Positions 16,223 to 38,458 of a stretch of DNA of 42,830 nt are shown one piece after another (position 1 is the stretch's first letter; each line of letters opens with the position of its first letter). The notes under the pieces were generated by a model. That model did no database searches and was not told the DNA's origin. It saw only the letters and a program-made list of their open reading frames with translations. A program made the position numbers and the translations under genes. Source of the stretch: a virus. The stretch lies in the IMG/VR virus record IMGVR_UViG_3300009285_000023, positions 1-42,830 of that record; one strand, given 5' to 3'.

Positions 16223-16549
16223 CTATGGAATCCTCGAATATTCGGGGAAGGTTCTAATGAATTTCTTTTCGTTGTCCCGACTAAAGGCTTGTGGGTCGGC
16301 TCGCTCGATGGCGTATTTAGCACCCACGGGAAGCCGGTAGGCAGCTTTCCAGTTGGATTTTTTATTTTTGACTATGTTCCGTCTGAACTCGGCGTTATCC
16401 TCAGCGCACATCCGATTGATTGTTGGGTTGTCGGGGTTGAGGGAAAACCAGAGTTTTCTAGCCTCCAGCCATCTCGAAGGCCCGGGCGGTTCTTTCATTA
16501 CCCGGTCTATGGCTTTAGAAAAGGTGTTTAGGGCTTGGGTTGGAAACAT
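16223..16549 (-). CDS. Hypothetical protein (108 aa)
   Basis: ORF between the capsid gene and the adaptor-like gene. Confidence 0.5.
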   Translation of the reverse strand: MFPTQALNTFSKAIDRVMKEPPGPSRWLEARKLWFSLNPDNPTINRMCAEDNAEFRRNIVKNKKSNWKAAYRLPVGAKYAIERADPQAFSRDNEKKFIRTFPEYSRIP

Positions 16550-16579: not shown

Positions 16580-17460
16580 TTAAAGGTGAGCGAAGCCAAT
16601 GAATGAGCTGTTTTCAGCTCGGGCTTCGACTGTTAGTTCCCCGGCAATCATGCCCTTACTGGAAAGACCAGTTTTGGCAATCTCCTCGTAGTGAGGTTCG
16701 TCGAGGTGGGCAATAGCCCATTTTTCTTTTTCTAGGCCAACGATGTCTAGGTTGTTGTCCCCAGAAACAGTTACCCAACGGTGTTTGTGTACTTCAACTC
16801 GACCGAAGTCGGAGTCATAAGTATCAATGGCGTTGTAAACTTGTTTGGTGTCAGCGTTGACGAAGCGGGTGTTGGTGTTAGTGAAGCCACTGATGCGTCG
16901 CTTCAGGGTGCCACCGACGAGTAACATATTGACATTTCCACCTTGGTTCCAAGCATTTTGGAGGTAGGTGTTCATTATGTTCTCAGACAGCGAAACGCCT
17001 GATTGTGCAGTAGAAAGTGTGCTTATCGCATACTTAATACCTTGCATCTGGCGAGCAGCCGAACCGGTACCGGAGATGAGGGTCGAACGAAGGACGGCGT
17101 AATCCGCAAAGCGGCGCCATTCCCTCATAGCCTTCTGCATCTCGTAGGAGTATCGGTCTTTGAAACCGGCTGGATTGGAAGCTCGGTCCGAACTTGAAAC
17201 TTGGAATTCAGACGTAATAATCTGAGTCCAGTTTGAACTTCGGGTTGGATTGGTACGAGCGGCGAATGTCGCATCGGCACCTTCCACACGGGCTACCAAG
17301 GATATAGCGGCCAAAGTATCAGTATTCCATTGGTGTTGGACGGCTGTAGCCTTTGACTTTTGTAAACCAACATACAACTGGTCTTCATCGGGAGAAATGT
17401 TGACGATGAGGTCAAGCAAGCTCTCACGAATGGCCCGGTTATCGTCAGTGTTGTTACTTT
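16580..17460 (-). CDS. Major capsid protein, SU10-type, proposed exon 2
   Basis: LLDLIVNISPDEDQLY...HQWNTDTLAA...EGAD... matches the SU10-like MCP pattern. The frame is open upstream to 17472 but has no ATG or GTG start; the only start-type codon is TTG at 17419. Confidence 0.8.
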
Positions 17461-18031
17461 CCCTGTCGGGATGGCTGGGTCATTTCTGCCCAACTCTGCA
17501 TATTCCTATGCAGCTCAGACTATAGCTTCACCCGCAAACATTAATTGCGGGGTCTCTCGCTTAGTCGTTACACGCGCTCTATGCTGCTCTAAAGTCATTA
17601 AGAGTTCTTCGCATTTCTGCTTTTTCTCACCAGCCATGAAGGGGGCAATGAGTGGTAATAGATATCGTAGGTCATCTATTCGCTTCAACGATATCACATA
17701 ACAGGGTTTAGTCCATCTAAAAGACTGTGGATACCGCTTGATGCTGGCAGTTTTACGAACTCTACTGTATTTGAGCTTTAGTGTATCGTATATTTCGCAT
17801 ACTCTATCGAGTAATCTTTCGTCAGAGTTTACAATTAAGATACCCCTATTGTAGTTGTACTGGCCGTTTCCTGGACGTAATTTCTTAGCGTAGTTCGCGA
17901 TGGAACCTTCGCCCTCAATTATCCCAGCAAGCCAGGCTAGAGCTTCGCTCGGTGTTGTCCCATACTTTTCAGCTGTAGGAGTTCCACCGAATTCAGAGAG
18001 ATATTTTTTCACAGAGATTACTCCCTGCGTA
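17461..18031 (-). mobile_element. Intervening sequence in the capsid gene (putative self-splicing intron carrying a homing endonuclease)
   Basis: It separates a 31-nt ATG-initiated exon with a strong RBS from the capsid body. ACAGGG is present at both boundaries, and joining the exons restores the frame. Confidence 0.5.
17515..18012 (-). CDS. LAGLIDADG homing endonuclease (single-motif, 165 aa)
   Basis: LAGIIEGEGS motif about 28 aa from the N-terminus. Size is typical of homodimeric LAGLIDADG enzymes. GTG start. Confidence 0.75.
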   Translation of the reverse strand: MKKYLSEFGGTPTAEKYGTTPSEALAWLAGIIEGEGSIANYAKKLRPGNGQYNYNRGILIVNSDERLLDRVCEIYDTLKLKYSRVRKTASIKRYPQSFRWTKPCYVISLKRIDDLRYLLPLIAPFMAGEKKQKCEELLMTLEQHRARVTTKRETPQLMFAGEAIV

Positions 18032-18062
18032 CCCTGTTGGCCAAGGTATAGGTAATAGCCAT
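18032..18062 (-). CDS. Major capsid protein, proposed exon 1 (MAITYTLANR)
   Basis: AGAAAGGATTACC-ATG lies 44 nt after the scaffold stop. If unspliced, the frame stops after 14 codons. Confidence 0.5.
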
Positions 18063-18106
18063 GGTAATCCTTTCTAAATTCTAGTTAAAGAATTTTATTT
18101 AAGTTG

Positions 18107-19148: not shown

Positions 19149-19437
19149 ACTCCTTCAAGTCTTTAGCTTTTTGTCTGGCTCGGTCGGCGACCTCAGAAAA
19201 ACGATTAGGGGTTTCGACAATCATCTTCAGACCCATCACAATACCCCTAGCAATCCAGTCTTCTTTGTCGGTGGCGATTTCGCCATTCATTATCCGACGG
19301 ACATATTCTTCAATGGTCGGATTAATGACTGATTCGACATACCATTTCCACTCTTCGGTATTCATAAAAGCCTCAACCTTGCGCCCATCAGTTATCTCAC
19401 GTTCGTAGCGGGCTTTGATTTTGTCTAGTTCATTCAC
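19135..19437 (-). CDS. Hypothetical protein (100 aa)
   Basis: ORF overlapping the portal stop. Confidence 0.5.
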   Translation of the reverse strand: MNELDKIKARYEREITDGRKVEAFMNTEEWKWYVESVINPTIEEYVRRIMNGEIATDKEDWIARGIVMGLKMIVETPNRFSEVADRARQKAKDLKEFENG

Positions 19438-21434
19438 GACGTAACCTCCGGCGCTCTAGTGTAATTCGATACAGGGTTAGGTGGCGGGGGTAGAAAATCT
19501 AAGACCGAAGGGTCTAGGAAACCACTGTTAGCCAGCTCATTAGCCATAGACGAAGTTTCAGCGTCGACTTCTGGGTCGAGCGGTTCACCGGCTTGCGAGG
19601 GTTGAAAACCGGCCTCAGCTTCCATTTGTCGCTTAAGGTCAGGTGGAGCGGAGTCATATTTGATACCGAATCTCTCGGCTGGTGATTTGGGTGGTTTCTG
19701 TTTGGCTTGAGCCATCGTCGCTTGCATCTGTTGCATATTAGATTGAGCTTCTTCAGCGGGTAGCAAAAGTGAGTTGAAGTTCTGATAACCAAAGTCTTCA
19801 GCTAGGTTTTGAGCCATTTCCGTGAAGTTCAGCGGTAGTGGCGGAGTGCCAGCAGTCTGGCTCTGAACATCGGCCGCTTGTTTTAGTAGCAGTAGTTGTT
19901 GATTAAATGTCAATCGGTTAAGTCGCTTCTGGTCTTTGGTCATCGGTTGCATGGATGCTTCGTCGATAATTAACTGCATATCACCCTGTAGGTCAGCTGG
20001 AGAAACGGTCATCGGCATCATTTGCCCTCCCTGAGAAACCATAATTCGTTGGGGGGACTGCATGAACTGCTGGTTATTAGACAGCCACATCCGACCAATT
20101 TGCAAGATTGACTGAGAAAAGTTTTCCTTGAAGAAGGATATTACATCCCCAGCAGCTTCCTGTAATCGCATGATACCGGTAGCCGTGCCTTGAGTTTTAT
20201 CGGCCTGGGAATTTGGTACACCGCTGGCATACTGGGAAATCGTCACGCCTTCTACGGCTTGGTCTAAGAGAGTTAGGATAGTGCTAAGGTTATTAGGATT
20301 GGGGTCGGCGTGTTTAAACTGGGTTGGCGGTTGATTGCCCCGATAGCTGACCACCCCGCCTGGCTCAACCACATAGTCATTAACATTGCCGGATTCCGGC
20401 ACCATCAGCATAGAGTTTTCGGATAGATTCCACTGGTCAAAGAAGTGATTGAAGGCGTCGTTATAAGCCGCCTGTAGGCGATAGGTAATTTCGAACAATC
20501 CTTCTCCCCAAAACTGGTAGGGTTTTTTCTTAACGTGAAATTTGACCAGTGGAACTTTGCCGTGCCAGTAGGGGTTTTTTCGTTCAGACAGCAATATCCA
20601 GCCAGTGTCAGAGGCTTTATCGCCACTCTCGGCATAGGTGCAGATTTTCCCATTCTCATAACACTCATAAATACAGGCCATATCAACGGTTTTGTCGTTC
20701 TGTTCCTGTTCCGAGAGTAGGCGGTTTCGAGAGCGATTATAGTTATTGGGGTCGGCTGAAGTAGAACCGCTAACCTGAGAGAGATTCTGATAAAACGGCT
20801 TACCATTGAAATCCAGTCGGGCTTCCAATTCAGCCAGAGGTTTGTATTCTCTAATAATTACCCAGGGAGCTTTATATAGGTCGGTAGCTGAAGGACTGAC
20901 AAAGACATTGAAAATATTAACTGGTTCCAGTTCGTTATAACCAACCGTCTTAGTAAAAACAGTTTCTTTGGTTAAGTCGGCAGTGCCGTCTTCATCAACT
21001 TGACGTTCGTAGCGTTCTTTCTTCTCGACACACCACGGCACTTTAGCCATTCCTGTTCCACAAACTACGGCGTCCAGTAGCGGAGAAAATAATTTATCTC
21101 TAATACTTTCGCTGAAATCGGGATTATTATAATCATATTCTAATTTACGTTGGGCTTTTTCGGCTCTGAGTTGAGCATCCTCTTCAGCCTCTTCATCCAA
21201 AACACGGACTTCAAAGCCAGGCTTGAGGGTTAGGAACTTAGACACCAGGCTCCATGTCTGTCTGGCTAAAATCGGCAAATAAACCTGACTGCGCCACGGA
21301 GCGGCTTCGACGGACACGACCGAATAGAGCGCGTCATACCAATGGGTGTAACGCCTGAACATCTGTTCCTGATTGCCCGAAGCCGTGGAAAATCTTTTCT
21401 TCCACTGAGCCACAGGAGTTTTCTTATATGCCAC
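19434..21434 (-). CDS. Portal protein
   Basis: 666 aa, upstream of scaffold and capsid, with an acidic C-terminus. Called from size and synteny. Confidence 0.7.
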   Translation of the reverse strand: MAYKKTPVAQWKKRFSTASGNQEQMFRRYTHWYDALYSVVSVEAAPWRSQVYLPILARQTWSLVSKFLTLKPGFEVRVLDEEAEEDAQLRAEKAQRKLEYDYNNPDFSESIRDKLFSPLLDAVVCGTGMAKVPWCVEKKERYERQVDEDGTADLTKETVFTKTVGYNELEPVNIFNVFVSPSATDLYKAPWVIIREYKPLAELEARLDFNGKPFYQNLSQVSGSTSADPNNYNRSRNRLLSEQEQNDKTVDMACIYECYENGKICTYAESGDKASDTGWILLSERKNPYWHGKVPLVKFHVKKKPYQFWGEGLFEITYRLQAAYNDAFNHFFDQWNLSENSMLMVPESGNVNDYVVEPGGVVSYRGNQPPTQFKHADPNPNNLSTILTLLDQAVEGVTISQYASGVPNSQADKTQGTATGIMRLQEAAGDVISFFKENFSQSILQIGRMWLSNNQQFMQSPQRIMVSQGGQMMPMTVSPADLQGDMQLIIDEASMQPMTKDQKRLNRLTFNQQLLLLKQAADVQSQTAGTPPLPLNFTEMAQNLAEDFGYQNFNSLLLPAEEAQSNMQQMQATMAQAKQKPPKSPAERFGIKYDSAPPDLKRQMEAEAGFQPSQAGEPLDPEVDAETSSMANELANSGFLDPSVLDFLPPPPNPVSNYTRAPEVTS

Positions 21435-21501
21435 TAAGAAGACCTATAAAGCCATCTGCGGTTACATTTAGTTGTATGGTATCAATAAATAGGGGTTTTG
21501 T

Positions 21502-22515
21502 CTAACTGACACCCATGGTCATAAGTGGGTTGGTGGATGGAGCGTCGCCACCGGCTGCCGCCGTAGTATAGGTAATAACTAGTTTGGGGTCATTAGTGGT
21601 TCCAGCCTGGTCAGCAAAATAACACTTCCAATAAAAGAGGGTTCCTGATGCCCATGCGGGCGCCACAGCTCCTACGTCAAAGTTAGCGTTTCTAAGACTA
21701 AACTTAGAGATACTAGTGAGAGAGATAGCCGCTAGTCCCGAGGCATTTAACGCCCAATCAACATAGGCGCTTTCAGAGAGGTTGGCATGGGTTACGGCCG
21801 TGGAAAAAGCCGTAGTTCCTAAACTATCATAATCCCCGACCCCCAAAGCAGTGTTCGAGGCTGGAGCCGAGGAATACACGTTTGTAGTAGGAGCATTTGG
21901 AACGCCATCATATTTTTCAAATCCGAAGAACGATAGGGTTGCAGCAGATACAGTTGCCCCAGCTCCTAGTCCAGAAGTGTCGAATAGGGCTATTCCCCTC
22001 CTGAGTCTCGCAAACTGATTGGTAGTGACAGAACCCGATACCCAGATAATTGATACCCCTGTCTCGGTGTCGACAGCAGAATCACCGTCGGCGGCGGCTA
22101 TCATTGTAGCCCAGGTTTCATCCCTCCCGTCTCTCCCAACCCAACCATCTACCGATGTAGTTTCAGGGTTCGGGTCAGGATAAGCTGTGAGAGTAGCAAA
22201 ACCAAAACTCAGTCTCGGGGCATACCTATCGGCTATTGACCAGTCCCAGAAGTGAAATGTCCACCACAGAGGTTTAAAAGCGAAATATAATCTTTTACCA
22301 TATTTTTCATGGGTACGGAACTCCCAAGTATTTCCCCAACGGATAGCATGGGGCAGAATTTGGTCAATTCGATTATTCCCGACAGAGCTGCTGTCGGCAT
22401 GGATTCTCAGGATATACCGGAACCAGTAACAAGTTAGCCTATTGTTTAATAGCCAAAGCAGTTTGTTTTGGTGCTTTTCAAAAAAATCCTTATTTAACGC
22501 TCGATAATTATACAT
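21502..22515 (-). CDS. Hypothetical protein (337 aa) with a beta-rich C-terminal domain
   Basis: ORF overlapping the upstream repeat-protein gene. No confident family. Confidence 0.5.
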   Translation of the reverse strand: MYNYRALNKDFFEKHQNKLLWLLNNRLTCYWFRYILRIHADSSSVGNNRIDQILPHAIRWGNTWEFRTHEKYGKRLYFAFKPLWWTFHFWDWSIADRYAPRLSFGFATLTAYPDPNPETTSVDGWVGRDGRDETWATMIAAADGDSAVDTETGVSIIWVSGSVTTNQFARLRRGIALFDTSGLGAGATVSAATLSFFGFEKYDGVPNAPTTNVYSSAPASNTALGVGDYDSLGTTAFSTAVTHANLSESAYVDWALNASGLAAISLTSISKFSLRNANFDVGAVAPAWASGTLFYWKCYFADQAGTTNDPKLVITYTTAAAGGDAPSTNPLMTMGVS

Positions 22516-23521
22516 ATCGCACGAAACCGGTCAAACCGGTAGGGACAACTGACGCTCCATTGGTGTTGGTCGTAGCGGCTATTTTAATACCGGCGGTGTG
22601 TTTGATACCAACTTCCAGTGGCAAGACAAATCCGGCACCGTTAGCGGCGGTAGCACTCGATGGAAGCGGCAGAACGTAAGAAGGAATATTGACACCCAGC
22701 GTGACAGCAGAGCTTCCGGCCACATCAAAGACCTGTATGAAAACTGGAGTTGCATTCAGATTCAGGAACATCCCGCCACCGAATTTACCAGCTGCGGCCG
22801 ATACCGTAGCCTGCGAACCAAGTGAGAGGGCTGAAAAAACACTCCAGCCACCGGAGGCTAGAGCAGTGAGATTAACGTCATTGCCGATGCTCAGGGTACC
22901 GCTAGATACCGTGACGGCGTGAGAGTTTCCGACTGATACCGTTCCCGAAGATACACTAACTACTGGGCTATTCCCGACGCTTACAGTTCCGGCCGAAACC
23001 GTCGGTACGTTTCCGATAGAAATGGTTCCGGAAGTAATCGTACCAGAGATAGGTAGCGGCAGCGTTGCTTGTATGACCGTTGGATTGGAAGAAAGAGATA
23101 CAGGTAGTGGTAGGGTGGCTTGGGTATTAGTAACTACTCCCGATACCGTGACCGCCGGAATATTACCGACCGATACCGTGCCACTGGAAGTGACTGAACC
23201 TGAAATCGGAAGCGGTAAAGTAGCTTGAATAACTGTGGGATTAGTCGATAAAGCGACCGGTAGGGGAAGGGTTGAGGAGGTGGTTGTTACAATATTCCCT
23301 ACCGAAACTGTCCCAGCCGAAACTGTTGGCACATTCCCTACTGAAATAGTACCCGAGGTAATAACACCAGAGATAGGGAGAGGGAGAGTAGCTTGAGATA
23401 CCGGTATAGGGTTACCGGCGTCATTAGTAATTTCTAAAGCACTAGCAATGGTAACTGGTAAAGAACCAACAACCTTTACACGCTGTGTGTTGTCGACTGA
23501 ATCGTAACCGGGAGCGCCCAT
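22508..23521 (-). CDS. Ser/Thr/Val-rich tandem-repeat fibrous protein
   Basis: Three units of about 52-64 aa starting ATLPLPISG, with seven xGT[VIL]S[VI]GN sub-repeats. Confidence 0.6.
   Translation of the reverse strand: MGAPGYDSVDNTQRVKVVGSLPVTIASALEITNDAGNPIPVSQATLPLPISGVITSGTISVGNVPTVSAGTVSVGNIVTTTSSTLPLPVALSTNPTVIQATLPLPISGSVTSSGTVSVGNIPAVTVSGVVTNTQATLPLPVSLSSNPTVIQATLPLPISGTITSGTISIGNVPTVSAGTVSVGNSPVVSVSSGTVSVGNSHAVTVSSGTLSIGNDVNLTALASGGWSVFSALSLGSQATVSAAAGKFGGGMFLNLNATPVFIQVFDVAGSSAVTLGVNIPSYVLPLPSSATAANGAGFVLPLEVGIKHTAGIKIAATTNTNGASVVPTGLTGFVRYV
22877..23392 (-). repeat. Coding tandem repeats (about 3 units) within the fibrous protein gene
   Basis: Repeat boundaries derived from the translation (residues about 44-215). 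Confidence 0.8.
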
Positions 23522-23572
23522 AAAAAAATCCGCTTATGGTCATCTAGGGGGTTACATATGAAGTTAGGTCGA

Positions 23573-24484
23573 TTATATCACATTTTTAATTACTGCAAAC
23601 AATTTATCAGTGGATTCCTTAATAGTAGTAAAATGCTCCTGAAGCAATTTTTCTCTATAGTCATAACTATTAGTCAAGGCCTGGATTAGTCCGGCGGCAT
23701 AGTTTTCCTTTGTTAGAAAGAATCCATGTTTTACTGTTTCATAAAGCGCCATAGTTGGAATAATTACTGGGACGCAACCAGCCGCTTGAGCCTTCATTCC
23801 AGTGATACACTGAAGTTCTCCGCCATTGGCTGGGTGGCACCAAATGTCGCTCGTCCGATAAAGTTCGTTCATTGTATCTTCGTCAACTTCACCGAGAGCA
23901 GTAACGCCTGGCAGATTAGCGTGGCCGCCGTATGTTAAGACTAAATTTGCGTCTGGGTGAGCCTCATATACTCTAGGCCACGCCTCTAATAGTGTATCAA
24001 GTCCTCTGTCTGGTGAGGAAGCATAAAGACATTGTTTGGGAATTTTCATACCTGGGAAAATCTTTTTCGGGTCATAGCCATGAGGCACCACAAAAACATT
24101 CGGGTTATTGACTGGGATATTTTCCTTAGCCCAATTAGAGATGTGAATAACTGCTTTGTATCTGGATAGGTCTTTTTGGGAAGCGTCAACCTCATTAGTA
24201 TAATAAATTGTCGGCTCCAGGGGTTCTATCTCCGAGGATTTAATGTTTATACAAACATCACCACCTCCGTAATAATCACTCCGATAATCGAACCAAGCGC
24301 CGTTCTCGATACGAGTCACGGAGCGATAATCATCGAACCTGGAGTTTCTGTAAACATGAACATCGTGTCCTCTACCAGACAACTCTATCGCCCAATCACG
24401 GACACCCTCTTCAGTACCTCCCAGTCGAGTATCTGTGGGTTCCCAGCCATCGAAAACGGCATTAACAATGAAGTTAATTTTCAT
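23573..24484 (-). CDS. GT-B fold glycosyltransferase (GT4-like)
   Basis: N-terminal W.P...GGTEEG...GHDVHVY and C-terminal GGELQCITGMKAQAAGCVPVI. Paralogous to the split GT-B at 29086-30400. Confidence 0.7.
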   Translation of the reverse strand: MKINFIVNAVFDGWEPTDTRLGGTEEGVRDWAIELSGRGHDVHVYRNSRFDDYRSVTRIENGAWFDYRSDYYGGGDVCINIKSSEIEPLEPTIYYTNEVDASQKDLSRYKAVIHISNWAKENIPVNNPNVFVVPHGYDPKKIFPGMKIPKQCLYASSPDRGLDTLLEAWPRVYEAHPDANLVLTYGGHANLPGVTALGEVDEDTMNELYRTSDIWCHPANGGELQCITGMKAQAAGCVPVIIPTMALYETVKHGFFLTKENYAAGLIQALTNSYDYREKLLQEHFTTIKESTDKLFAVIKNVI

Positions 24485-24486
24485 AA

Positions 24487-25173
24487 TTACCAGATGGAAC
24501 CGTGTTTTTTCTTAAACTTAATTTTGGACTCTTCGTACTGAGTGTCTTCGGGGTCAACTAATTTATAGGTTGATTTGGGTTGGTGGGTAATAGCTAATTC
24601 ATAGTTCTTACCAACCCTAAAACCAGCGTCCTCGGCTCGTTTCTGGAAATCTAAGTCAGTGAAATAACCCCGACCCAAACCTTCGTCTAGGCCGCCTAGT
24701 TTATCGTAAACCGCTCGTTTGAAAGCAAAAATACTGCCAAACTTCTCACCTTCGCTTATCCGCTGGCTAGTAGTAACCCCAGCACCAGGTTCCACTGTTG
24801 GCAGGGATGAAATATCATATCCGTTGAGAAGAGGTTTTATTAATGCCGTCAACCATTTATCTGGGAACAGAAGGTCATTATTGCCAACAATTAAGATTGA
24901 CCCAGAAACGTCTTTTAAACCGGCGTTTACGGCTTTAGTGTAGCCCTGATTGCTGGGTAAGCGAATTATCTTGGCATTTACTAATTTAACAAAATAGTTA
25001 TCTTCACCCAAAGACAAGGGTGAACCATCGTCAACTATAATCACTTTATTCGGAGTCTCCTGAGACATCGACATTAGACAACGCTCAGTGGCTTCCAGCA
25101 ATTCGTTGTTAATTAAATAAATCGGTAAGATAAAACTTGTCCATTGTTTTGTCATACTAGCTCCTTTAACCAT
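24487..25173 (-). CDS. Family 2 glycosyltransferase
   Basis: SFILPIY...VIIVDDGSP...GYTKAVNAG motifs. Confidence 0.75.
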   Translation of the reverse strand: MVKGASMTKQWTSFILPIYLINNELLEATERCLMSMSQETPNKVIIVDDGSPLSLGEDNYFVKLVNAKIIRLPSNQGYTKAVNAGLKDVSGSILIVGNNDLLFPDKWLTALIKPLLNGYDISSLPTVEPGAGVTTSQRISEGEKFGSIFAFKRAVYDKLGGLDEGLGRGYFTDLDFQKRAEDAGFRVGKNYELAITHQPKSTYKLVDPEDTQYEESKIKFKKKHGSIW

Positions 25174-25916
25174 TTTATTACATCTAGCGTCGGGGTAGCG
25201 GATTTAGACTTGGTCGATTTCATCTCACCCACCTCTTCTGGTACAAACTTTATTTTATCACTTATGGTTCGAGCTACTTCTAGGGTAGTATGGTCAATAC
25301 CCGAACCCACCTCAAAAGTCCCCAGAGTATCTTTAAGTGCTAGGGTTTTTTTGACAGCATCCCCCACATAAATATAATCCCGTTTCATCGAGCCATCTCC
25401 CCTAACCGTTAGAGCCTCGCCACGGCTCCTTTGTTCTAACCAAACGGGGATGGCTAAGTCGGGTCTCATACGTTCGCCAAAGACATTGAAGTAGCGCAGA
25501 ATTGTATATTTTACCCCATAGTTGCGGTGGTAAAATTCAATATAGGCTTCACAGGCTTGTTTCTGAATACCGTATGGAATGTTTTGACCAACGGCCGAAG
25601 AAGAAGCAAAAATAAACCTCGCCCCAGTTTTGCGAGCTAAGTCTAGTAATCTAATAGTCCCCAGTACGTTGTTAATTTCGCTGGCTAGCGGGTCGGCATT
25701 GGCGTCAACTATACTAACTGTCGCCGCGAAATGAAAGATATAGTCTAGTCTCTCGTTAGTATTAGTAAAAAGAATATTTTTCCCCTCTTTGACGTCCCAA
25801 CCAATAGCATCTTCGAGGGTCTCCATTAGGTGCGAGCCAATAAAACCCCTATGGCCGGTTATCAGGCTTCGAGAGCGTGACGGAAAGATTTTCCGGGTAA
25901 TCACTGTACTTCTCAT
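25152..25916 (-). CDS. NAD-dependent sugar epimerase/dehydratase (extended SDR)
   Basis: ITGHRGFIGSHL (GxxGxxG) and PYGIQK (YxxxK). Start uncertain. Confidence 0.7.
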   Translation of the reverse strand: MRSTVITRKIFPSRSRSLITGHRGFIGSHLMETLEDAIGWDVKEGKNILFTNTNERLDYIFHFAATVSIVDANADPLASEINNVLGTIRLLDLARKTGARFIFASSSAVGQNIPYGIQKQACEAYIEFYHRNYGVKYTILRYFNVFGERMRPDLAIPVWLEQRSRGEALTVRGDGSMKRDYIYVGDAVKKTLALKDTLGTFEVGSGIDHTTLEVARTISDKIKFVPEEVGEMKSTKSKSATPTLDVIKWLKELV

Positions 25917-26367
25917 TGTTTACTTTCATTTTAAAACCTAGCGGTAGACAAATTTTTTCCAACCTAGCCCAATTCCAAGGGTTACGATGAATAGAAGCGG
26001 CGTTATTTTCCCAATCACTGTAGCGCTCTTTATCCCAAGGACGATAATACTCTCCAACAAGGTTATAAATCCATTTATCTAATAAGCCCTCTTTCAAGAT
26101 AGCTCGGCAAATATAATCTATGTCGGGAGTTTCTATAGTTGCTGTGCCACCAAATTTTAATACTCGGTATATTTCTTCAAACATTTGTTTGGACTTCCAA
26201 TAGGGTATGTGTTCAATCACCTGATGGGCTGTAATCTCCTTAACCGACTCGTTGTCGAATGGTAGTTCACAAATATCAGCTCTGACATCAGCCGCTTCAT
26301 CATACAAATCAACTGAGGTAAATCCAGGTATTATATGGTCTCCGCTACCTAAATCAAGCTTCAACAT
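25849..26367 (-). CDS. Class I SAM-dependent methyltransferase
   Basis: LKLDLGSGDH motif I. ATG 26367 is chosen because it overlaps the upstream stop by only 14 nt. Confidence 0.65.
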   Translation of the reverse strand: MLKLDLGSGDHIIPGFTSVDLYDEAADVRADICELPFDNESVKEITAHQVIEHIPYWKSKQMFEEIYRVLKFGGTATIETPDIDYICRAILKEGLLDKWIYNLVGEYYRPWDKERYSDWENNAASIHRNPWNWARLEKICLPLGFKMKVNNEKYSDYPENLSVTLSKPDNRP

Positions 26368-27052
26368 AGGCCGCTTCCCGTACTGAAGCTGTCGATGGAG
26401 AGAAACTCGGGACTCTAGCCACCAATAATCCACATTCAGTTGCCAAAATCTCCGTATCAGGGTACTTGGCGAACATATAGTCAACGAAATCAGCACACTC
26501 GCTCCGCCGGTCATTGACATTATCGGCTAGGATTAGGGCGCCAGGCACCAGTCTAGGTTCCAATAATTGAAAGTCCTTCAAGTAGGAGCCTTTGTCGTGG
26601 TCCATAAATACTAAATCCGGTTTAGGCACAGTCGTACGGATAGCACTCTCAGCCGTCCCATGAAATACGAAAGCTTCCAATCCAGCCTCATCTAAATTAG
26701 CTTGAGCTTCACTAGCCACATCAGTCTCAAACTCAACTGTTATTATCCGACTCTGGGAACTGCCTAGACCTAAATGCAAAGTAGAAAAACCGTAGGCCGT
26801 CCCCATTTCAAAGATTTGCCTAGGTTTGAGTAGTGCGGCGTAGGCTTGAAGGAGTGGTGCCGTGTCCTCTCTGACTGGGTTGCGACGGCTCTTATGTTCC
26901 GTGCTACCGCTGCCCTGGTATTCCTCTCCACCCTGACCCCTGATTCGTTCAATAACTGCTAAAATCCTGTACTGTCGTTCTGGGAACATATTTAAATCCA
27001 GCATTGGTTCTCCTTTTGGTTGATAAAATTCTTTGCTAAAATCAAGGCTCAT
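26354..27052 (-). CDS. Family 3-like O-methyltransferase
   Basis: IFEMGTAYGFSTLHL ... VFMDHDKGSYL ... ILADN pattern. Confidence 0.6.
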   Translation of the reverse strand: MSLDFSKEFYQPKGEPMLDLNMFPERQYRILAVIERIRGQGGEEYQGSGSTEHKSRRNPVREDTAPLLQAYAALLKPRQIFEMGTAYGFSTLHLGLGSSQSRIITVEFETDVASEAQANLDEAGLEAFVFHGTAESAIRTTVPKPDLVFMDHDKGSYLKDFQLLEPRLVPGALILADNVNDRRSECADFVDYMFAKYPDTEILATECGLLVARVPSFSPSTASVREAAYVEA

Positions 27053-27717
27053 CGCTCCCTCCTAAATATTCTCACATAACCACAACGTGAATCTTCTTCG
27101 AACCGTTCATCGGTCTGAGCAAATTCGTCCACAACTCGGCTGACATCAGGCAAACCCTTGAACCAGTTGCCAAAATCACCTAGATTGCACCCAGCATCAT
27201 CGAAAACCAGATAGCCGCCGACTTTAACTTCTCCGGCAAACCGCTCAATATCATTACGGACAGTTTTCTCATCATGCCCACCGTCAATAAATAATAGGTC
27301 CAGGTCTTTGATTGGTTTAATTTTCTCGTCGGTTGAAAAACCATCGCTAATGGTCGCTTTGGTCTCAAACTCATCGAGGATTCTATCTATGTCTTTTTGA
27401 CTAACCGCTGGATGGCTTCCGTAACCGTCGGTTGTTTCCTGGTTGAGTGGCGCAAGACCAAAAATATCAAATTTTTTATGCAGTTTTTTCCCGATTAATC
27501 CCCACAGGCTGATTACCTGTCCCTTGTAAACACCTATTTCCATCAATCTAGCCTCATCGGGTAGCTCCTTGAGAAGTTTATACCACATGTAGTGTAGGGC
27601 ACGGTCGCCATAACCCCACCGGTTCTTCTCAACCCAATCCCGATGGGCTTTTAGATAATCTTTGGAATCAGTCTTAACTATATAATCAACCCAATCAGCT
27701 ACTTTTACTTTGGCCAC
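27049..27717 (-). CDS. Class I SAM-dependent methyltransferase (Methyltransf_24/TylF-like)
   Basis: LMEIGVYKGQ ... FIDGGHDEKTV ... GGYLVFDD. GTG 27717 is preceded by AAGGAGGT. Confidence 0.6.
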   Translation of the reverse strand: MAKVKVADWVDYIVKTDSKDYLKAHRDWVEKNRWGYGDRALHYMWYKLLKELPDEARLMEIGVYKGQVISLWGLIGKKLHKKFDIFGLAPLNQETTDGYGSHPAVSQKDIDRILDEFETKATISDGFSTDEKIKPIKDLDLLFIDGGHDEKTVRNDIERFAGEVKVGGYLVFDDAGCNLGDFGNWFKGLPDVSRVVDEFAQTDERFEEDSRCGYVRIFRRER

Positions 27718-27911
27718 TTGCTTACCTCCTTGATATATCTCATGGCTGCTTTGGTACAATGAGATAAGAGCCAATCCTCTTGTTCTCTGGTAAGCGCTTT
27801 ACCATCCCAACCATCACGAAAGTCAAGACCTACTTTAACAAAAAGACCATAGATGTGTGCCTCTACCGCTTTAAGATGCTGCTCAATTGTTATTTTGGTC
27901 ATTTGAGCCAT
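27705..27911 (-). CDS. Hypothetical small protein (68 aa)
   Basis: ATG 27911 with a GAGGT RBS. It lies between GT and MT genes. Confidence 0.4.
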   Translation of the reverse strand: MAQMTKITIEQHLKAVEAHIYGLFVKVGLDFRDGWDGKALTREQEDWLLSHCTKAAMRYIKEVSKWPK

Positions 27912-27936
27912 AGCAGATAACCTCGTATTGAATAAT

Positions 27937-28644
27937 CTACGGCCATAGATGTAGCCTTTCAATTTCGGGAGGCGGATTAGCCGGGATAAAATGGTGCAGG
28001 GTTTCAGGTGTAACGGGGTGGACATCAGTTACGCCTAGTTGCCAACGCTTCCAGACGTCCTCGTACCATTCTTTTACATTAAAATCGTGAGCATGGGCAT
28101 AATGGGTAATTTTATTAAGTATCTCGTCGTCGGTTCTAGCCCAAGAAAAATGGTGTAGGTCTATTGGTGCAACTCCGAATCCCTCATTTATAACCCGCTT
28201 ATCGATAAACTTAGCCGGAGAGCGAACAGCTACTAGCATTTTATAGTCCCTTGGTGGGTGGGCTACCCAACCGTTCTTCCAATAAGTAAACTGTCTCTTG
28301 ACGACATAAGCATTGATTTCTGTAGGTGAGTTATTCAGCGTTTCGACTAACTTCTCCCAATTCTTATTATCTATAAATTCATCCGGGTCGAGCACAATCA
28401 CCCATCCGTCACCAAAATACTCTAGCCCAGCGTTACGTTGGTCTTGCTCGGTCGGCCAGTTATACTCCACGACTGAAGCACCCAATTTACGGGCTATCTC
28501 AGCTGAATTATCTACTCCGGTCTGTTCGCCGAACCAGGGTTCAGTCGAATTAAGTACCAGGATTTCGCTGGCTTTATCCTTATAATACTCGATAAATTTT
28601 GGCAGAAAACGCTCTTCTTTATAGGCGACGGTCATTATTCTCAT
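27937..28644 (-). CDS. GT-A type glycosyltransferase (Glyco_tranf_2_4-like)
   Basis: MTVAYKEERFLPKFIEYY and a DPDEF (DxD) motif. Confidence 0.55.
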   Translation of the reverse strand: MRIMTVAYKEERFLPKFIEYYKDKASEILVLNSTEPWFGEQTGVDNSAEIARKLGASVVEYNWPTEQDQRNAGLEYFGDGWVIVLDPDEFIDNKNWEKLVETLNNSPTEINAYVVKRQFTYWKNGWVAHPPRDYKMLVAVRSPAKFIDKRVINEGFGVAPIDLHHFSWARTDDEILNKITHYAHAHDFNVKEWYEDVWKRWQLGVTDVHPVTPETLHHFIPANPPPEIERLHLWP

Positions 28645-29222
28645 ATTGGATATAGCTCCCTCTTGGCTTGTTCGTAGGCAGCGCTAGCTTCCTCGGGCGT
28701 ATTGAAACTCCCAAGTCTACGATACTTACCATTGAGCCCTATCAGAACTATCCATTTTTGGCGGTCTTTACGGTATTGTACGCCAGTATATCCACTACTA
28801 TTATTCCGCTGTCTGCCACGATTCATAATATTTATGCTAAAGTCCACCAAGCGTAAATTAGAACAACGATTATCTAATTTATCTCTGTTAATGTGGTCAA
28901 CTAATCTATCGGGGGGAGCATTAATAATCAGACGGTGCATCGGTAGCGTCCTCTGGTATTTAATTCCTCTGCGACCCAACCCATAGGGTATAATTCTGGT
29001 CTGCCGACAGGCATAGCCGTCATAATTATCTCGTTTGTAGAACCACTTAAAGTTTTTAACCAAATCATAATGACAATCACAGACTTTAGCCACTTTCCCC
29101 TGGGTGAGAGGACATAGCTTTATCCCAGACACGGGCGATTTTGTCCCAATAACTTTTAGCCGCCCACTCCTGAGCTGGTTTTGGGTCATAATCTTCTTGT
29201 TTAAGTGCCTTAACGAGCGCAT
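28641..29222 (-). CDS. HNH endonuclease with a C-terminal AP2 DNA-binding domain (homing-type)
   Basis: VDHINRDKLDNRCSNLR (HNH) and SGYTGVQYRKDRQKWIVLIGLNGKYRRLGSFNTPEEASAAYEQA (AP2). The true start is probably downstream, for example GTG near 29129. Confidence 0.8.
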   Translation of the reverse strand: MRSLRHLNKKIMTQNQLRSGRLKVIGTKSPVSGIKLCPLTQGKVAKVCDCHYDLVKNFKWFYKRDNYDGYACRQTRIIPYGLGRRGIKYQRTLPMHRLIINAPPDRLVDHINRDKLDNRCSNLRLVDFSINIMNRGRQRNNSSGYTGVQYRKDRQKWIVLIGLNGKYRRLGSFNTPEEASAAYEQAKRELYPI

Positions 29223-29700
29223 CTACAAATTCTTTCTGTTTCTCTTCATTGCGGTAAATATCATCACACCTAACAGTATACCCAAATCCACCCTGAGTTT
29301 CAAGTACTGCCCCAACACCAGTCGTTACGGGGATGCACCCTGCTGCTAGAACTTTTATCATTGTTATCATATTTATTTCTGTGAACTCACTAGGATAAGC
29401 AAGCACCTTGATATCTTTCATAGCTTCAGCCAACTTCTCATGCGAGACTCGGCCATTTTCTTTGACTCCGTCCAGTTGATGTATCATTTTAATCATTTGC
29501 CACTTCCACTTCATGTTTTCAGGATTTTGGGAGTGAAATTTATCATACATATCCCAACCATAATAAATATCCAAAGTGGCTTCTGGGACTTTTTCTTTAA
29601 CCCTAGGCCACAATCCCAAAAGAATCACCAAACCCCTGTCATAGGAAGAAAAATAACCAACACTATAAGGACGCTTTATATTACCTTTTGGTTCATTCAT
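29086..29700 (-). CDS. C-terminal half of a GT-B glycosyltransferase, as a separate ORF
   Basis: YFSSYDRGLVILLGLWPRV...PSEFTEINMITMIKVLAAGCIPV parallels residues about 160-270 of the intact 303-aa GT-B. Confidence 0.65.
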   Translation of the reverse strand: MNEPKGNIKRPYSVGYFSSYDRGLVILLGLWPRVKEKVPEATLDIYYGWDMYDKFHSQNPENMKWKWQMIKMIHQLDGVKENGRVSHEKLAEAMKDIKVLAYPSEFTEINMITMIKVLAAGCIPVTTGVGAVLETQGGFGYTVRCDDIYRNEEKQKEFVDALVKALKQEDYDPKPAQEWAAKSYWDKIARVWDKAMSSHPGESG

Positions 29701-31406
29701 AGAAAGTGTGACCTCATTATTCCATTACTAACAATTTTAATATGGTCGTCATCAACTTCCGGATACCAGTCCCGATGGTACTTACTCTTAACCATAAACA
29801 TGGCCTGTGGATTAGCCCTGGCAACCGCATAAATCCGGCCTGGTTCGGCAGTATCATGTAGGTCTATGAGAACTTTGCGGGCTTTAACGCCCATGGCATT
29901 TTCCGGTAGCCGCGAGGCAATAAAAACATCAAACTCATCATTTGGGTTGAGTAACGACCACGGCTTATAAATAATTCCGTTATCATTATATTCAACCTCC
30001 CTATCGTTAAAGACTGTCACCTGCCAGCCTAACTTAGACAGCTCCCTGGAGAGATAAATTACCGCTTCCTCACTACCACCCATACCTTTATCGAGGGTGT
30101 CCGGTCCCCAATCTTCAAGTCCCTGTCCACAATAATAAGCGACTGATTTAGGGGGCCATTTTTGGGGCGGGAATAACTGAATACGTTCGGCATTTAGACG
30201 GGGGTCAGCCATCAACCGATAGGGCAAGGCTTCCAGAATTTTCTCCGGTTTACCTTTCATACCTTTAGCGTAGTGTAGAAGATAACGGGAGGAATCAACG
30301 GCTTTATCATCGGCATAGGCCTCCTCAAAAAGTTTACGCCAATCGACGTTTGTTTCTTTGGAGTGAGCGTCGATAAAATGCGACGCCCGTTTATCCGTCT
30401 CCTGATAAAGCTGGTAGGCCTCTTTTATCATACCCGCCCAGAGATGAACCTGGGCAGCCATAAAAATACCCCGATATTGCCAGAGGGTCGGGTCAACCAT
30501 CCGTAGCGTCTGAATCGGCGGTTTCGACAGAGCCACTTTGCTCCATTCAATCGCCTTGAATAGTTCATTAGTAGCCCCATAAATCATAACTTTCATATAA
30601 TAGCCTTCGGGTTTTTCGGGGAAAAGACGTAACGCCATATCCGTACAAACAATCGCTTCCGGGTAACCTTTAGTCCGGTAGTGGCAGTCGGCTATTTTCA
30701 ACCAAGCATCATATTTTTCCTCATCCCAGCCACCGTTATCTATTAGGAAATGATAATACTCGGCCGCTTGGCGGGCATTACCCTCGGATAGAAAGTTCTC
30801 ACCCAGATAAAAAGCTGTTCGGGGGTCTTTGGTTTTTTTAAAATGCTCCAAAAGAAGTTTACGGTTGCGGCCATGGGAGCGTTTTATCCCCTTTTCGTCT
30901 TTATGGTGGATGATGGTAATGTCTTCAACGGCGACGGAGCGGGCGAACTCGCCCATAATCGTTTCGTGGACGGGGACTGATGACCAGTACAGTGGGGCGG
31001 CGGTTCGAACAATTCTCTCCCGGCGGTGGTCGTTAATACCCTCACCGTGGATATTCTGGAAATAGTTATAATTAAAGTACATAATATCGAGTTCATTCTT
31101 GAGCATAAAATCAACCATTTCCCGTAGTTTTTCAGGGTGGTCGATAGTATCGTCGGTATCTATCCAAAACCAATAATCAGTATCAATTTGTTTCCGGTTA
31201 AACTCTCTGGTCAGTCCGAAATTATCGACCCATTCAAAGTAGGACAAAATAATCTTACCATCCAGTTTTTGATTTTTAAGTTTGTTGTAGGTCGGACGAT
31301 GAGTGACGGTTAAGAAAATTTTATCGAAATACTGGCCATACCCACCAAGTATTCGTTTCAGGTCTTTGACCTGATTTTTCATAATCATGGACAGCCCCAA
31401 GGTCAT
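29697..31406 (-). CDS. Multidomain GT2 - TPR - GT-B (N-terminal half) protein
   Basis: GT-A region with WIDTDDTI, TPR-like repeats (AFYLGENFLSEGNARQAAEYY...), and C-terminal GMGGSEEAVIYLSRELSKLGWQVTVF. ATG 31406 overlaps the upstream stop as ATGA. Confidence 0.65.
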   Translation of the reverse strand: MTLGLSMIMKNQVKDLKRILGGYGQYFDKIFLTVTHRPTYNKLKNQKLDGKIILSYFEWVDNFGLTREFNRKQIDTDYWFWIDTDDTIDHPEKLREMVDFMLKNELDIMYFNYNYFQNIHGEGINDHRRERIVRTAAPLYWSSVPVHETIMGEFARSVAVEDITIIHHKDEKGIKRSHGRNRKLLLEHFKKTKDPRTAFYLGENFLSEGNARQAAEYYHFLIDNGGWDEEKYDAWLKIADCHYRTKGYPEAIVCTDMALRLFPEKPEGYYMKVMIYGATNELFKAIEWSKVALSKPPIQTLRMVDPTLWQYRGIFMAAQVHLWAGMIKEAYQLYQETDKRASHFIDAHSKETNVDWRKLFEEAYADDKAVDSSRYLLHYAKGMKGKPEKILEALPYRLMADPRLNAERIQLFPPQKWPPKSVAYYCGQGLEDWGPDTLDKGMGGSEEAVIYLSRELSKLGWQVTVFNDREVEYNDNGIIYKPWSLLNPNDEFDVFIASRLPENAMGVKARKVLIDLHDTAEPGRIYAVARANPQAMFMVKSKYHRDWYPEVDDDHIKIVSNGIMRSHFL

Positions 31407-31699
31407 AATTTCTCCAGCTGAGCCATAGAGACTGAATTTTTCAACTCCCTGGAACAATGATGCATCTTCATGTAGAACTTCCTATGACCGCCCCTGTCGG
31501 AGTTCCAGTCATCAATGTGCATGAGAATATCCTCGGACATATACTCATGTTTGGACTCATCGGGGTGGGACAAAACAAAAGATTTCCTGGGATTGGTCCT
31601 AACATCGTAGTCTTTGTTTGTGACCACACCCAAAAGCGTATAACCATTAAAACACAGGTAGGCGGCTATCCCTATGTCAGTAGTCATATAATGTTTCAT
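31403..31699 (-). CDS. DUF5659-like small protein
   Basis: TDIGIAAYLCFNGYTLLGV...RKSFVL pattern. Confidence 0.4.
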   Translation of the reverse strand: MKHYMTTDIGIAAYLCFNGYTLLGVVTNKDYDVRTNPRKSFVLSHPDESKHEYMSEDILMHIDDWNSDRGGHRKFYMKMHHCSRELKNSVSMAQLEKL

Positions 31700-31740
31700 T
31701 TCAGAGATTTACTGATATTTACTCCGTTTGAGATTCGTGT

Positions 31741-33039
31741 TCAAGATAACATCCTACCGGTAATTTTGTCAAACCGCTTTTCCTTTTTAGGTTTTAGAAC
31801 CGTCTCCGGCCCACGATTGTCAACCTCCCAACAGTAATACTCGAAGGCTCTAGCACCGTGGCTGAAACGGTCGTGAATTGGGATTTCGTTGGACTGGTTA
31901 ATGGCCGATTCCCGTTTGGAACCCGGATAGCGATAGTTATTCAAAACGTCTATAAACCCCTTGGTCGGTTCACATTGTCTGATGAACAGCCTAGGAATGT
32001 ATTTGTGGGCGATTCTAACCTGGGAAGGAATATCCGGGATTTGGTTGGTCCGCACAAACACGCCTAATTTTTCCAACTCTTCCACTGCCGAAGTGCCGGT
32101 AACTAGGTTCCTGGCTCGTCCAGCGGCATCGCCGACGTGCATGGCTACCGTCCCATAGGGTTTAGAAGTCAAGACTTGAACGAAGTGAGCGATGTTGACA
32201 TCGCTGGCTTCATAGTAATCAATCACCCGTAGTTCGGATTCGTGGGGCTGAAGCCATATCATAGCCGTCGGGTCATTAACCCCAAAATCCCAGGCCACAT
32301 GGAGCGGTAGGTTGGAGTCATAGTCAAATTTCTTAATTTGAGTTTGTTCGTTAAATTCTTTATAAACCACACCCAGAGGTTTAATGTATTCGGCCATTAT
32401 TTCCTGTTGGTAAAAGTCTTCGCCGTAAGATTGATACTCAGCCTCTAGTTCCTTCAGCTCATCCTTGGACAGCTCGGGGTTATCGTAAGAGGAGAAATGA
32501 AACTCCTTAAAGTTACCGGTCTCCGACAGGCGGAACATCCCCCGTTTACCTTTTGGGGTCCCGGCGATTATCGCCCAAGCCTTGTGAGGAATGAGATTCG
32601 GTCGAATGATAAGCGGCCAGATGTCTTCCTGCCAGTCGTCATATTCGTCCATTCCTATTCCACCCCAATTAGAAATCCCTCTTAGGGCCTCTTTATTCTC
32701 CACTCCATAGAGCTGCACCTTTCCACCGTTAGGGAAAGTGACCGAGAGGTCCGCTTCATTCAGTTTATAAGGAACCTTTAACTCCTTGAAGTGGTCTAAC
32801 AAACGATAGATATGGTCGTTCCAGACGATATTCTTGGCCTGAAGTTTGTTGGGAGCGATATAAGGAAAGGTCAACCCCGTTCCTAGCGCCCCTTCAAAAA
32901 GACGGGAAACAATCAAAGATGTCTTCCTCCACTTGCGACCAGCTCGCAATAAAATGAACCTATCGCCCTTATCAATCGCCTCCAGAACTTTTAGTTGAGA
33001 TGGATGGGGCGAGCTAGGGTAGAAGACATTAATGTCCAC
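31741..33039 (-). CDS. terL: Terminase large subunit
   Basis: RAGRKWRKTS (Walker A-like), GMDEYDDW (Walker B) and a C-terminal nuclease-like region. Confidence 0.9.
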   Translation of the reverse strand: MDINVFYPSSPHPSQLKVLEAIDKGDRFILLRAGRKWRKTSLIVSRLFEGALGTGLTFPYIAPNKLQAKNIVWNDHIYRLLDHFKELKVPYKLNEADLSVTFPNGGKVQLYGVENKEALRGISNWGGIGMDEYDDWQEDIWPLIIRPNLIPHKAWAIIAGTPKGKRGMFRLSETGNFKEFHFSSYDNPELSKDELKELEAEYQSYGEDFYQQEIMAEYIKPLGVVYKEFNEQTQIKKFDYDSNLPLHVAWDFGVNDPTAMIWLQPHESELRVIDYYEASDVNIAHFVQVLTSKPYGTVAMHVGDAAGRARNLVTGTSAVEELEKLGVFVRTNQIPDIPSQVRIAHKYIPRLFIRQCEPTKGFIDVLNNYRYPGSKRESAINQSNEIPIHDRFSHGARAFEYYCWEVDNRGPETVLKPKKEKRFDKITGRMLS

Positions 33040-38433: not shown

Positions 38434-38458
38434 AAGGATAAAACAATAGAATGAGTAA
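38434..38458. repeat. Left copy of a perfect 25-nt direct repeat (AAGGATAAAACAATAGAATGAGTAA)
   Basis: Identical to 39113-39137. It contains the RBS, the ATG and 2 codons of the methyltransferase gene. Confidence 0.95.

Follow-up and report, generated by a model that had tools for sequence, protein, structure and literature searches.

The enzymes SunS and ThuS are peptide glycosyltransferases that act on Cys, Ser or Thr residues. The virions of tailed phages are, to our knowledge, generally assumed to be unglycosylated, mycobacteriophages excepted. GmaR, the O-GlcNAc transferase of Listeria monocytogenes flagellin, consists of a glycosyltransferase (GT) domain of ~180 residues followed by tetratricopeptide repeats (TPRs); it transfers GlcNAc to flagellin and so glycosylates a structural protein ahead of its assembly (PMC9638930). 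According to the account given in PMC11256854, the capsids of mycobacteriophage Che8 and its relatives are glycosylated by phage-encoded GTs, producing a glycan shield (Freeman et al. 2023, as cited there), and phages of that cluster, Maravista for example, carry putative GT genes near the 3' end of the genome. Here we analysed IMG/VR virus record IMGVR_UViG_3300009285_000023, a window of 42,830 nt that comprises a whole phage genome, and studied a block of minus-strand genes located between the large terminase gene (terL) and the portal gene. The lead enzyme of this block, termed TPR-GT, belongs with GmaR, SunS and ThuS when judged by sequence family. On balance, we favour a reading in which the enzymes of the block act in the cytoplasm and decorate a virion protein with an oligosaccharide that is probably O-methylated.

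The terL and portal genes are separated by 10,306 nt in which all open reading frames (ORFs) are co-directional and in which five ATGA start/stop overlaps occur (DUF5659-like/TPR-GT, TPR-GT/GT-B(C), HNH/GT2a, MT1/MT2 and SDR/GT2b; names as in Table 1). An original prediction, made from the sequence alone, had noted the same 10.3 kb of co-directional, ATGA-coupled genes and had described the whole as a glycan-synthesis island. The arrangement was reproduced and every one of the predicted domains was recovered by Pfam search, DUF5659 weakly. The designation as an island holds for the enzyme module (positions 23573 to 31699), which contains five GT units, three methyltransferases and one member of the short-chain dehydrogenase/reductase family (SDR). 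It does not extend to the last two genes (21502 to 23521), which are not glycan-synthesis genes and which occupy a variable slot ahead of the portal gene. The gene list was also revised: TPR-GT begins at the ATG at 31406 rather than at the TTG at 31457, MT1, MT3, SDR and GT2b start at internal codons and are shorter than the longest ORFs, and a 68-aa ORF without a Pfam match was added. The GC content of the block (0.41 to 0.49) is like that of the rest of the genome. A recent foreign insertion was considered and ruled out, since the GC content matches the genome and the module dates back to the ancestor of a wide clade.

The product of the TPR-GT gene is identical to a database protein of 569 residues (P0001). 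From the N-terminus it comprises a GmaR/SunS-type GT-A domain (approximately residues 1 to 190, with DTDD as the DxD motif), a TPR region and the N-terminal Rossmann half of a GT4-like GT-B. The TPR hits (Pfam TPR_16, TPR_6, TPR_19 and TPR_2; residues 207 to 284) lie directly C-terminal to the GT-A domain, and the protein has no predicted hydrophobic segment. All PDB sequences were searched with a profile (A1) built from 29 homologues, among which W-x-D-x-D-D is invariant. Generic TPR hits aside, the matches were to GmaR (1e-14), SunS (1.5e-14) and ThuS (1.3e-11), the last of which spans both the GT-A and the helical-repeat region (profile positions 3 to 351). A second profile comprising the GT-A domain only (A4) matched GmaR over the whole domain (8e-16; profile positions 4 to 188 against residues 11 to 197), followed by SunS (5.6e-12) and ThuS (7.7e-8), while the next GT2 structures were weaker (6e-4 to 0.03). 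The original prediction had regarded the fusion of TPRs to a GT as typical of protein-directed enzymes. The GT-A matches, far above those of other solved GT2 structures, bear this out, and from its sequence TPR-GT looks protein-directed.

The C-terminus of TPR-GT reads ...NGIMRSHFL, and the following protein, GT-B(C), begins MNEPKGNIKRPYSV. Both ORFs could be aligned to a fused homologue of 771 residues (P0071): TPR-GT corresponds to residues 1 to 576, and residues 9 to 196 of GT-B(C) correspond to residues 583 to 770. This places the break in the linker between the domains, with no residues lost. The two halves match the GT4-like Pfam families Glyco_transf_4 and Glyco_trans_1_4 rather than MurG/Alg. 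A majority of TPR-GT homologues are 560 to 600 aa in length (the split form) and a minority are 730 to 780 aa (fused), and GT-B(C) comes after TPR-GT in all 74 loci with room for it. The possibility that the split represents a frameshift or pseudogene was ruled out because the break lies in the linker, nothing is missing and the split is kept in most homologues, including a cellular one. We regard the split as clean and conserved, with the two polypeptides predicted to constitute one complete GT-B. Two cellular contigs carry this lead pair without the other module genes: in L010 (10001-12246; 170-kb contig) it is in the split form, and in L011 (10001-12193; 99-kb contig) it is fused and adjoins the gene for a 2487-aa RHS/PA14-type surface protein and an Lsr2 gene.

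We identified 397 homologues of TPR-GT, mostly on contigs of 35 to 44 kb. A tblastn search of 50,697 GenBank phage records gave four hits, all of them uncultured Manatee Spring records and none a mycobacteriophage. Scanning IMG/VR with profile A1 revealed 193 relatives; 80 of these loci were fetched and the window proteins were mapped onto them by tblastn. The gene upstream of the lead pair is terL in 31 of the 80 loci (with two more in which an HNH gene intervenes) and the capsid gene in 31. In phages, the lead pair always resides inside the head-gene cluster, never among early or accessory genes, and the lead enzyme is kept across very divergent phages at ~30% identity.

Three layouts were distinguished. 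Layout A, which resembles the window and is found in L006 and L008, runs terL, DUF5659-like gene, lead pair, GT2a, methyltransferase, GT2b, GTB2, variable slot, portal and capsid. Layout B runs terL, lead enzyme, a 520-aa phage GroEL, the GT-B C half, a 228-aa class I methyltransferase, portal and capsid. Layout C runs portal, capsid, a small protein and the lead pair, followed by assorted GTs and SDRs. The small protein of layout C was rejected as a module component: its window homologue (16223-16549) stays beside the capsid gene, and hence it belongs to the head genes. The phage GroEL (~520 aa) lies between TPR-GT and GT-B(C) in L035 (11758-13320), L042, L050, L062, L071, L049, L057 and the GenBank record MW202497.1 (L093 5640-7208), and the methyltransferase that follows this arrangement bears the GenBank label 'capping protein'. 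Comparison with related phages, in which terL and portal might be adjacent without the island, had been proposed alongside the original prediction. In L091, the terL and portal hits are close together and the module comes after the capsid gene instead, showing that the module moves within the head cluster.

Across the 47 loci compared, homologues of the remaining enzymes were found at differing frequencies (GT2a in 16, GT2b in 20, GTB2 in 14, SDR in 5, MT1 in 1 and MT2 in none). A class I methyltransferase, of the MT3 type or of a second type, lies at most 4 kb downstream of TPR-GT in 35 of 53 loci. Extension by further enzymes is thus optional; what is conserved is the lead pair, in most cases accompanied by a methyltransferase, and always inside the head cluster. 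The window phage possesses the most elaborate version of the module that was seen.

Table 1. Features of the terL-portal block and flanking genes, listed in the direction of the minus strand.
Feature	Position	Strand	Basis
terL (large terminase), upstream flank	31741..33039	-	Pfam Terminase_6N, weak
DUF5659-like, 98 aa	31403..31699	-	Pfam E 0.0018, below curated cutoff
TPR-GT, lead enzyme, 569 aa	29697..31406	-	Pfam GT2 + TPR + N part of Glyco_transf_4
GT-B(C), C-terminal Rossmann half, 204 aa	29086..29700	-	Pfam Glyco_trans_1_4
HNH_3-AP2 endonuclease, free-standing	28641..29222	-	Pfam
GT2a, 235 aa, motif VLDPDEF	27937..28644	-	Pfam Glycos_transf_2, E 7e-8
68-aa ORF	27705..27911	-	called as gene in L001
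MT1, class I methyltransferase	27049..27717	-	Pfam Methyltransf_24, E 4e-9
MT2, cation-dependent O-methyltransferase type (family 3, like COMT, YrrM)	26354..27052	-	Pfam Methyltransf_24 + Methyltransf_3
MT3, Methyltransf_11-type class I, 172 aa	25849..26367	-	Pfam
SDR, extended-SDR (short), NDP-sugar epimerase/dehydratase-like, 250 aa	25152..25904	-	Pfam Epimerase, 2e-34
GT2b, generic soluble GT-A	24487..25155	-	Pfam 9e-15
GTB2, intact GT4-like GT-B, 303 aa	23573..24484	-	Pfam
Ser/Thr/Val/Gly-rich fibre-like repeat protein, 337 aa	22508..23521	-	repeats; C-terminal jelly-roll ~115 aa
CBM96-like protein, 337 aa: N-terminal helical domain + beta-sandwich	21502..22515	-	predicted model
portal, downstream flank	19434..21434	-	Pfam SU10_portal, E 6e-23
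major capsid gene, SU10_MCP type	16580..18080	-	phrog_1328, 3e-61; SU10_MCP in L002

The remaining enzymes of the module were compared with solved structures. GT2a has GmaR as its best PDB match (6e-5) and is 44% identical to its L008 homologue, and by sequence it is a second GmaR-like GT-A enzyme. For GT2b, in which no transmembrane segment was predicted, the matches were to DPMS and ArnC (catalytic domains) and, weakly, to GalT1 (E 0.005). GTB2 matches PimA, and its 28% identity to residues 435-709 of P0071 (E 2e-21) identifies it at the sequence level as a paralogue of the split GT-B. Among the methyltransferases, MT1 gave weak PDB matches to O-methyltransferases and MT2 matched YrrM (7e-13), which we take to be a tRNA 5-hydroxyuridine O-methyltransferase; the PDB entry bearing that name was a weaker match in the same search. 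The MT3 type is the methyltransferase kind most often retained beside the core pair. The SDR displays the motifs GHRGFIG and YGIQK, and its matches to NCBIfam equivalogs all fell far under the cutoffs. The stop codon of the DUF5659-like gene lies within its ATGA overlap with the TPR-GT start; homologues occupy the same position in L006 and L008 (32-34% identity) and in ~12 window-like loci, and the protein could be an adaptor or subunit. The HNH-AP2 gene overlaps the 3' end of GT-B(C), is absent from L006 and L008, and was found downstream of TPR-GT in one of 47 loci. It is a mobile homing endonuclease and a passenger rather than a pathway enzyme.

An exact 77-nt overlap joins the ends of the window (1-77 and 42754-42830), and the genome is therefore complete; the contig represents ~42.75 kb, circularly assembled or terminally redundant. 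The minus strand carries the genes from ~2.3 to 34.1 kb, in the order terS-like, 112-aa ORF, terL, the block, portal (SU10_portal), scaffold-like (18107-18868), capsid (SU10_MCP), adaptor (SU10_adaptor; 15556-16209) and tail genes. The phage looks lytic and podovirus-like. Its TerL is ~30% identical to the TerL of pelagiphage-type podoviruses, and among the ORFs scanned with Pfam and PHROGs we found no integrase and no DNA polymerase, only exonucleases, a NinG-like protein and a PD-(D/E)XK nuclease. A scan for promoters and terminators from 18 to 35.5 kb gave counts at chance level. The window proteins match contigs from a groundwater metagenome (SRR2177362/PRJNA292723). No relative of the window was detected in a nucleotide search of the 50,697 GenBank phage records, and an IMG/VR search by portal gave no confirmed relative. 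GTDB genomes contained six full-length matches to the lead enzyme, all on short contigs, four of which carry a capsid gene and one of these terL and portal also. Three of the six were binned with Saccharibacteria metagenome-assembled genomes (MAGs; L094, L097 and L098) and one with Falkowbacteria, a weak hint that the hosts are bacteria of the candidate phyla radiation (CPR), perhaps Saccharibacteria. The literature that was searched contained nothing relevant on such an enzyme architecture within the head modules of phages.

In the pathway that we infer, the acceptor class, the order of the steps, the methylation of the sugars and the virion location of the glycan are the conditional parts. 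The module would be expressed together with the head genes and would act as a soluble, cytoplasmic, sequential pathway. The TPR domain would dock a folded or assembling phage protein and so choose the acceptor, whereupon the GmaR/SunS-type GT-A would place the first sugar on Ser, Thr or Cys from a nucleotide sugar. A second sugar would be added by the GT-B that the C-terminal half-domain of TPR-GT forms with its translationally coupled 204-aa partner, and the chain could then be extended by GT2a, GT2b and GTB2. The SDR would provide an epimerised or otherwise modified nucleotide sugar, and the three methyltransferases would cap hydroxyls of the glycan.

We regard the major capsid protein as the foremost acceptor candidate, because the core pair is always found among the head genes. 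The repeat protein encoded in the variable slot had originally been put forward as the obvious acceptor. This assignment is not supported by the comparison, as a homologue of the repeat protein was found in none of the 47 loci with room for it, whereas the core pair was found in 74 of 74; nor was one detected in the fetched flanks of the 31 capsid-adjacent loci. We consider this Ser/Thr-rich, fibre-like neighbour a secondary and rather doubtful acceptor candidate in this phage, a non-enzyme that is possible but not conserved in the role.

The capsid gene of the window is apparently split by a group I intron (Rfam RF00028 at 17496-18055; full model, 38.6 bits against a gathering score of 50, E 3.7e-8). 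A 165-aa ORF inside the putative intron (17515-18012) carries the PHROG label 'HNH endonuclease', yet contains the LAGLIDADG-like motif LAGIIEGEGS. Upstream of it, a ribosome-binding site and an ATG encode MAITYT.., matching the N-terminus of relatives (MA.TYTYDDN.IREDLLD), and after the putative intron the capsid frame picks up at ..DDNRAIRESLLDLIVNISP.

We sought to further characterise the two 337-aa proteins of the variable slot, neither of which has a Pfam or PHROG match. The repeat protein (S+T+V = 41%) contains the unit QATLPLPISG..TSGTISVGNVPTVSAGTVSVGN at residues 43, 99 and 151. Tandem Repeats Finder detected no DNA tandem repeat in the gene, the repetition being confined to the protein level. 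Only ten database homologues were found, sharing a ~120-aa C-terminal domain, and one of these (63% identity) lies in a Saccharimonadales MAG (L012 10001-11326) beside beta-helix and DUF5907 proteins, which adds to the weak hint of CPR hosts. The structural model has a mean pLDDT of 47 and is confident only at residues 223-337, the jelly roll, for which the fold matches were not significant (HFTV1 turret of a haloarchaeal virus and a capsid chain of cyanophage Pam1; E ~0.01). That the repeat protein is a head decoration protein would be a guess from this model.

The second protein (21502-22515) yielded a model with a pLDDT of 90.8. Foldseek aligned it to carbohydrate-binding modules (8wab and 7vbo; E 2e-5, TM ~0.65), and the beta-sandwich also matches CBM96 and the tail and tail-fibre proteins of phages. 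As modelled, it is likely to be a glycan-binding, virion-associated protein. No homologue was found in any of the 47 loci with room for it. Elsewhere the family is large (5927 cluster representatives at E<=1e-3 and 1155 at E<=1e-30), with a conserved N-terminal ~320 aa comprising the helical domain and CBM96-like sandwich and often a C-terminal extension, up to 1797 aa. Like the repeat protein, proteins from the same slot of relatives are fibre-like and rich in Ser/Thr/Ala/Gly: one of 679 aa in L006 has AVTQPVSGTVTAN repeats, and one of 140 aa in L008 has the shared motif EI(S/T)ND(S/A)GNPIPV. The slot of L008 also holds a GH5 cellulase. In our reading, the slot is a cassette of varying content that encodes fibre proteins or proteins for the recognition of host glycans. 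A further family, marked by the N-terminal signature SEKSxxLDRxEH..(S)AKRV and by distal regions that vary but are Ser/Thr-rich, lies between the GT module and portal in 21 loci (for example L006 16230-16511, L055 6126-6428 and L047 9122-10312), and probably represents a fibre with a conserved virion anchor. A hidden Markov model of this family does not reach the window repeat protein at E 1e-3.

Several observations weigh against a virion protein as the substrate. In these phages, the capsid proteins lack an obvious Ser/Thr-rich tail. The position among the head genes is circumstantial and indicates co-expression at most, not substrate. Stand-alone pairs without surrounding phage genes exist in cellular genomes (L010 and L011), from which it follows that the enzyme needs no virion target. 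The closest relatives of GT2b and GTB2 are the enzymes of lipid-linked acceptors DPMS, ArnC and PimA, and the methyltransferases could act on protein or small molecules rather than on sugars. Finally, cultured phages lack the lead enzyme, the four uncultured records being the only ones among the 50,697 of GenBank to contain it by tblastn.

Four alternatives to virion glycosylation were weighed, in decreasing order of likelihood. The first is that the module glycosylates a host protein or a non-virion phage protein, such as flagellin, pilin, an S-layer or a giant adhesin, and thereby masks receptors, blocks superinfection or alters host behaviour. Flagellin is, after all, the substrate of GmaR, the nearest characterised relative. 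The pair occurs alone in cellular genomes, in one case beside the gene for the RHS/PA14-type surface protein of 2487 aa, and slot neighbours (the CBM96-like protein here, the cellulase in L008) are of kinds that interact with host glycans. In phages, however, the pair is always placed in the head module, following terL or capsid, and its retention in phages of ~30% identity, whose hosts presumably differ, fits better with an acceptor that the phage itself encodes. We consider this alternative unlikely.

A second alternative is that the enzymes build or remodel a lipid-linked or wall glycopolymer (O-antigen, teichoic acid or capsule) by means of a carrier, flippase and polymerase of the host, in a manner akin to seroconversion. 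The combination of an SDR, GTs and methyltransferases is typical of polysaccharide loci, and the catalytic domains resembled by GT2b, together with PimA in the case of GTB2, use lipid-linked acceptors. Against this, DPMS and ArnC have a transmembrane part that is missing from GT2b, and the lead enzyme falls in a protein-directed GT2 subgroup with TPRs. Genome scans revealed no Pfam family of phosphoglycosyl transferases, flippases, polymerases or Gtr (GtrA/B-like) proteins, and at most two hydrophobic segments were predicted in any ORF of at least 50 aa across the complete genome, so that a polytopic membrane protein is lacking. The original prediction had recognised no lipid-carrier transferase, flippase or polymerase in the block; the same is true of the whole complete genome. 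Seroconversion also sits poorly with a phage of lytic, podovirus-like appearance in whose scanned ORFs no integrase was seen. A role in glycopolymer synthesis is accordingly improbable in our view.

Third, the GTs might hypermodify the phage DNA with sugars as a defence against restriction, as in T4. MT2 has as its best structural relative YrrM, presumably a methyltransferase of tRNA 5-hydroxyuridine as noted above. In addition, GT clusters for the glycosylation of 5hmC have been described close to the structural genes of metagenomic phages (bioRxiv 10.1101/2023.12.21.572611). To address this alternative, Pfam and/or PHROG scans were run on nearly all plausible ORFs of at least 90 aa that lie outside the island. 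No source of 5hmC or 5hmU was present among them, whether a C5 methyltransferase with TET/5mYOX or a dCMP/dUMP hydroxymethylase, and the only DNA-modifying enzyme was an N6/N4 DNA methyltransferase (N6_N4 methylase; 38451-39086). Furthermore, the TPRs and the homology to GmaR and SunS indicate protein substrates, and we judge DNA hypermodification very improbable. The least credible alternative, by a little, is that the lead enzyme produces a glycocin-like glycopeptide (cf. sublancin), a phage-encoded bacteriocin rather than a virion modification: the peptide S/O-glycosyltransferases SunS and ThuS are among its top structural relatives and SunS is prophage-encoded, but no Cys-rich precursor, ABC exporter/peptidase or thiol-disulfide oxidoreductase lies beside it, the DUF5659-like protein and the 68-aa ORF are unlike glycocin precursors, and five GT units with three methyltransferases far exceed the needs of a monoglycosylated peptide.

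Extending the favoured interpretation, virion glycosylation, beyond the window is more speculative. We tentatively raise the possibility, without regarding it as probable, that a large group of uncultivated podovirus-like phages of ~40 kb from groundwater, soil and freshwater, with Saccharibacteria or other CPR bacteria as possible hosts, routinely sugar-coats its capsids by means of an undescribed head-module system. This system would consist of a GmaR/SunS-type TPR-GT fused to a split GT-B, usually accompanied by a methyltransferase and sometimes by GroEL, with the window version the most elaborate and making a methylated oligosaccharide. If so, glycan-coated capsids would be common among environmental phages (397 homologues, 193 IMG/VR loci), and virion glycosylation would be a widespread phage trait rather than a mycobacteriophage curiosity. 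With such a coat, particles would differ in their stability, in how they adsorb to surfaces and host envelopes, and in how host defences or grazers recognise them. The combination of GT-A, TPR and split GT-B would also constitute a new protein-GT architecture and a possible tool for glyco-engineering, and the stand-alone cellular pairs would offer a second route to understanding how the TPR picks its acceptor.

A number of known systems invite comparison. Giant viruses employ soluble multidomain GTs, some of them fused to methyltransferases, to place methylated oligosaccharides on virion proteins without lipid carriers, as in the chlorovirus PBCV-1 (A064R) and the fibrils of mimivirus. Their hosts are eukaryotic and the linkages are others, and the likeness is one of description, with no claim of homology. 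The serine-rich-repeat adhesins of streptococci are likewise modified by soluble cytoplasmic GTs (GtfA/B, Gtf3, dGT1 and GalT1) acting in sequence on a Ser/Thr-rich protein encoded nearby. The window, by contrast, has no GtfA/B homology and no accessory Sec, its repeat protein is not kept with the module, and the match of GT2b to GalT1 is weak. In Alg13/Alg14 the Rossmann halves of a GT-B are also present as two polypeptides. Here, the break occurs at the interdomain linker with an ATGA overlap, the halves are GT4-like instead of belonging to the MurG/Alg13-14 family, and the N half is fused to another enzyme.

Among phages, the mycobacteriophages returned no homologue of the lead enzyme by tblastn, a search made with that enzyme only and not with the other GTs. 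The window GT genes are situated in the head module rather than near a genome end, and form a larger set (five GT units, three methyltransferases and an SDR). SunS, from the SPbeta prophage, and ThuS share with TPR-GT the combination of a GT-A with a helical-repeat substrate-binding domain; their substrates are small secreted peptides encoded nearby with an exporter, none of which is apparent in the window. The closest likeness is to GmaR, the best profile match: a soluble protein with an N-terminal GT-A of ~180-190 aa followed by TPRs. TPR-GT differs from GmaR in having no anti-repressor domain and in carrying instead half of a GT-B that is completed by a second polypeptide, and, unlike GmaR, it is encoded by a phage, among the genes for the head.

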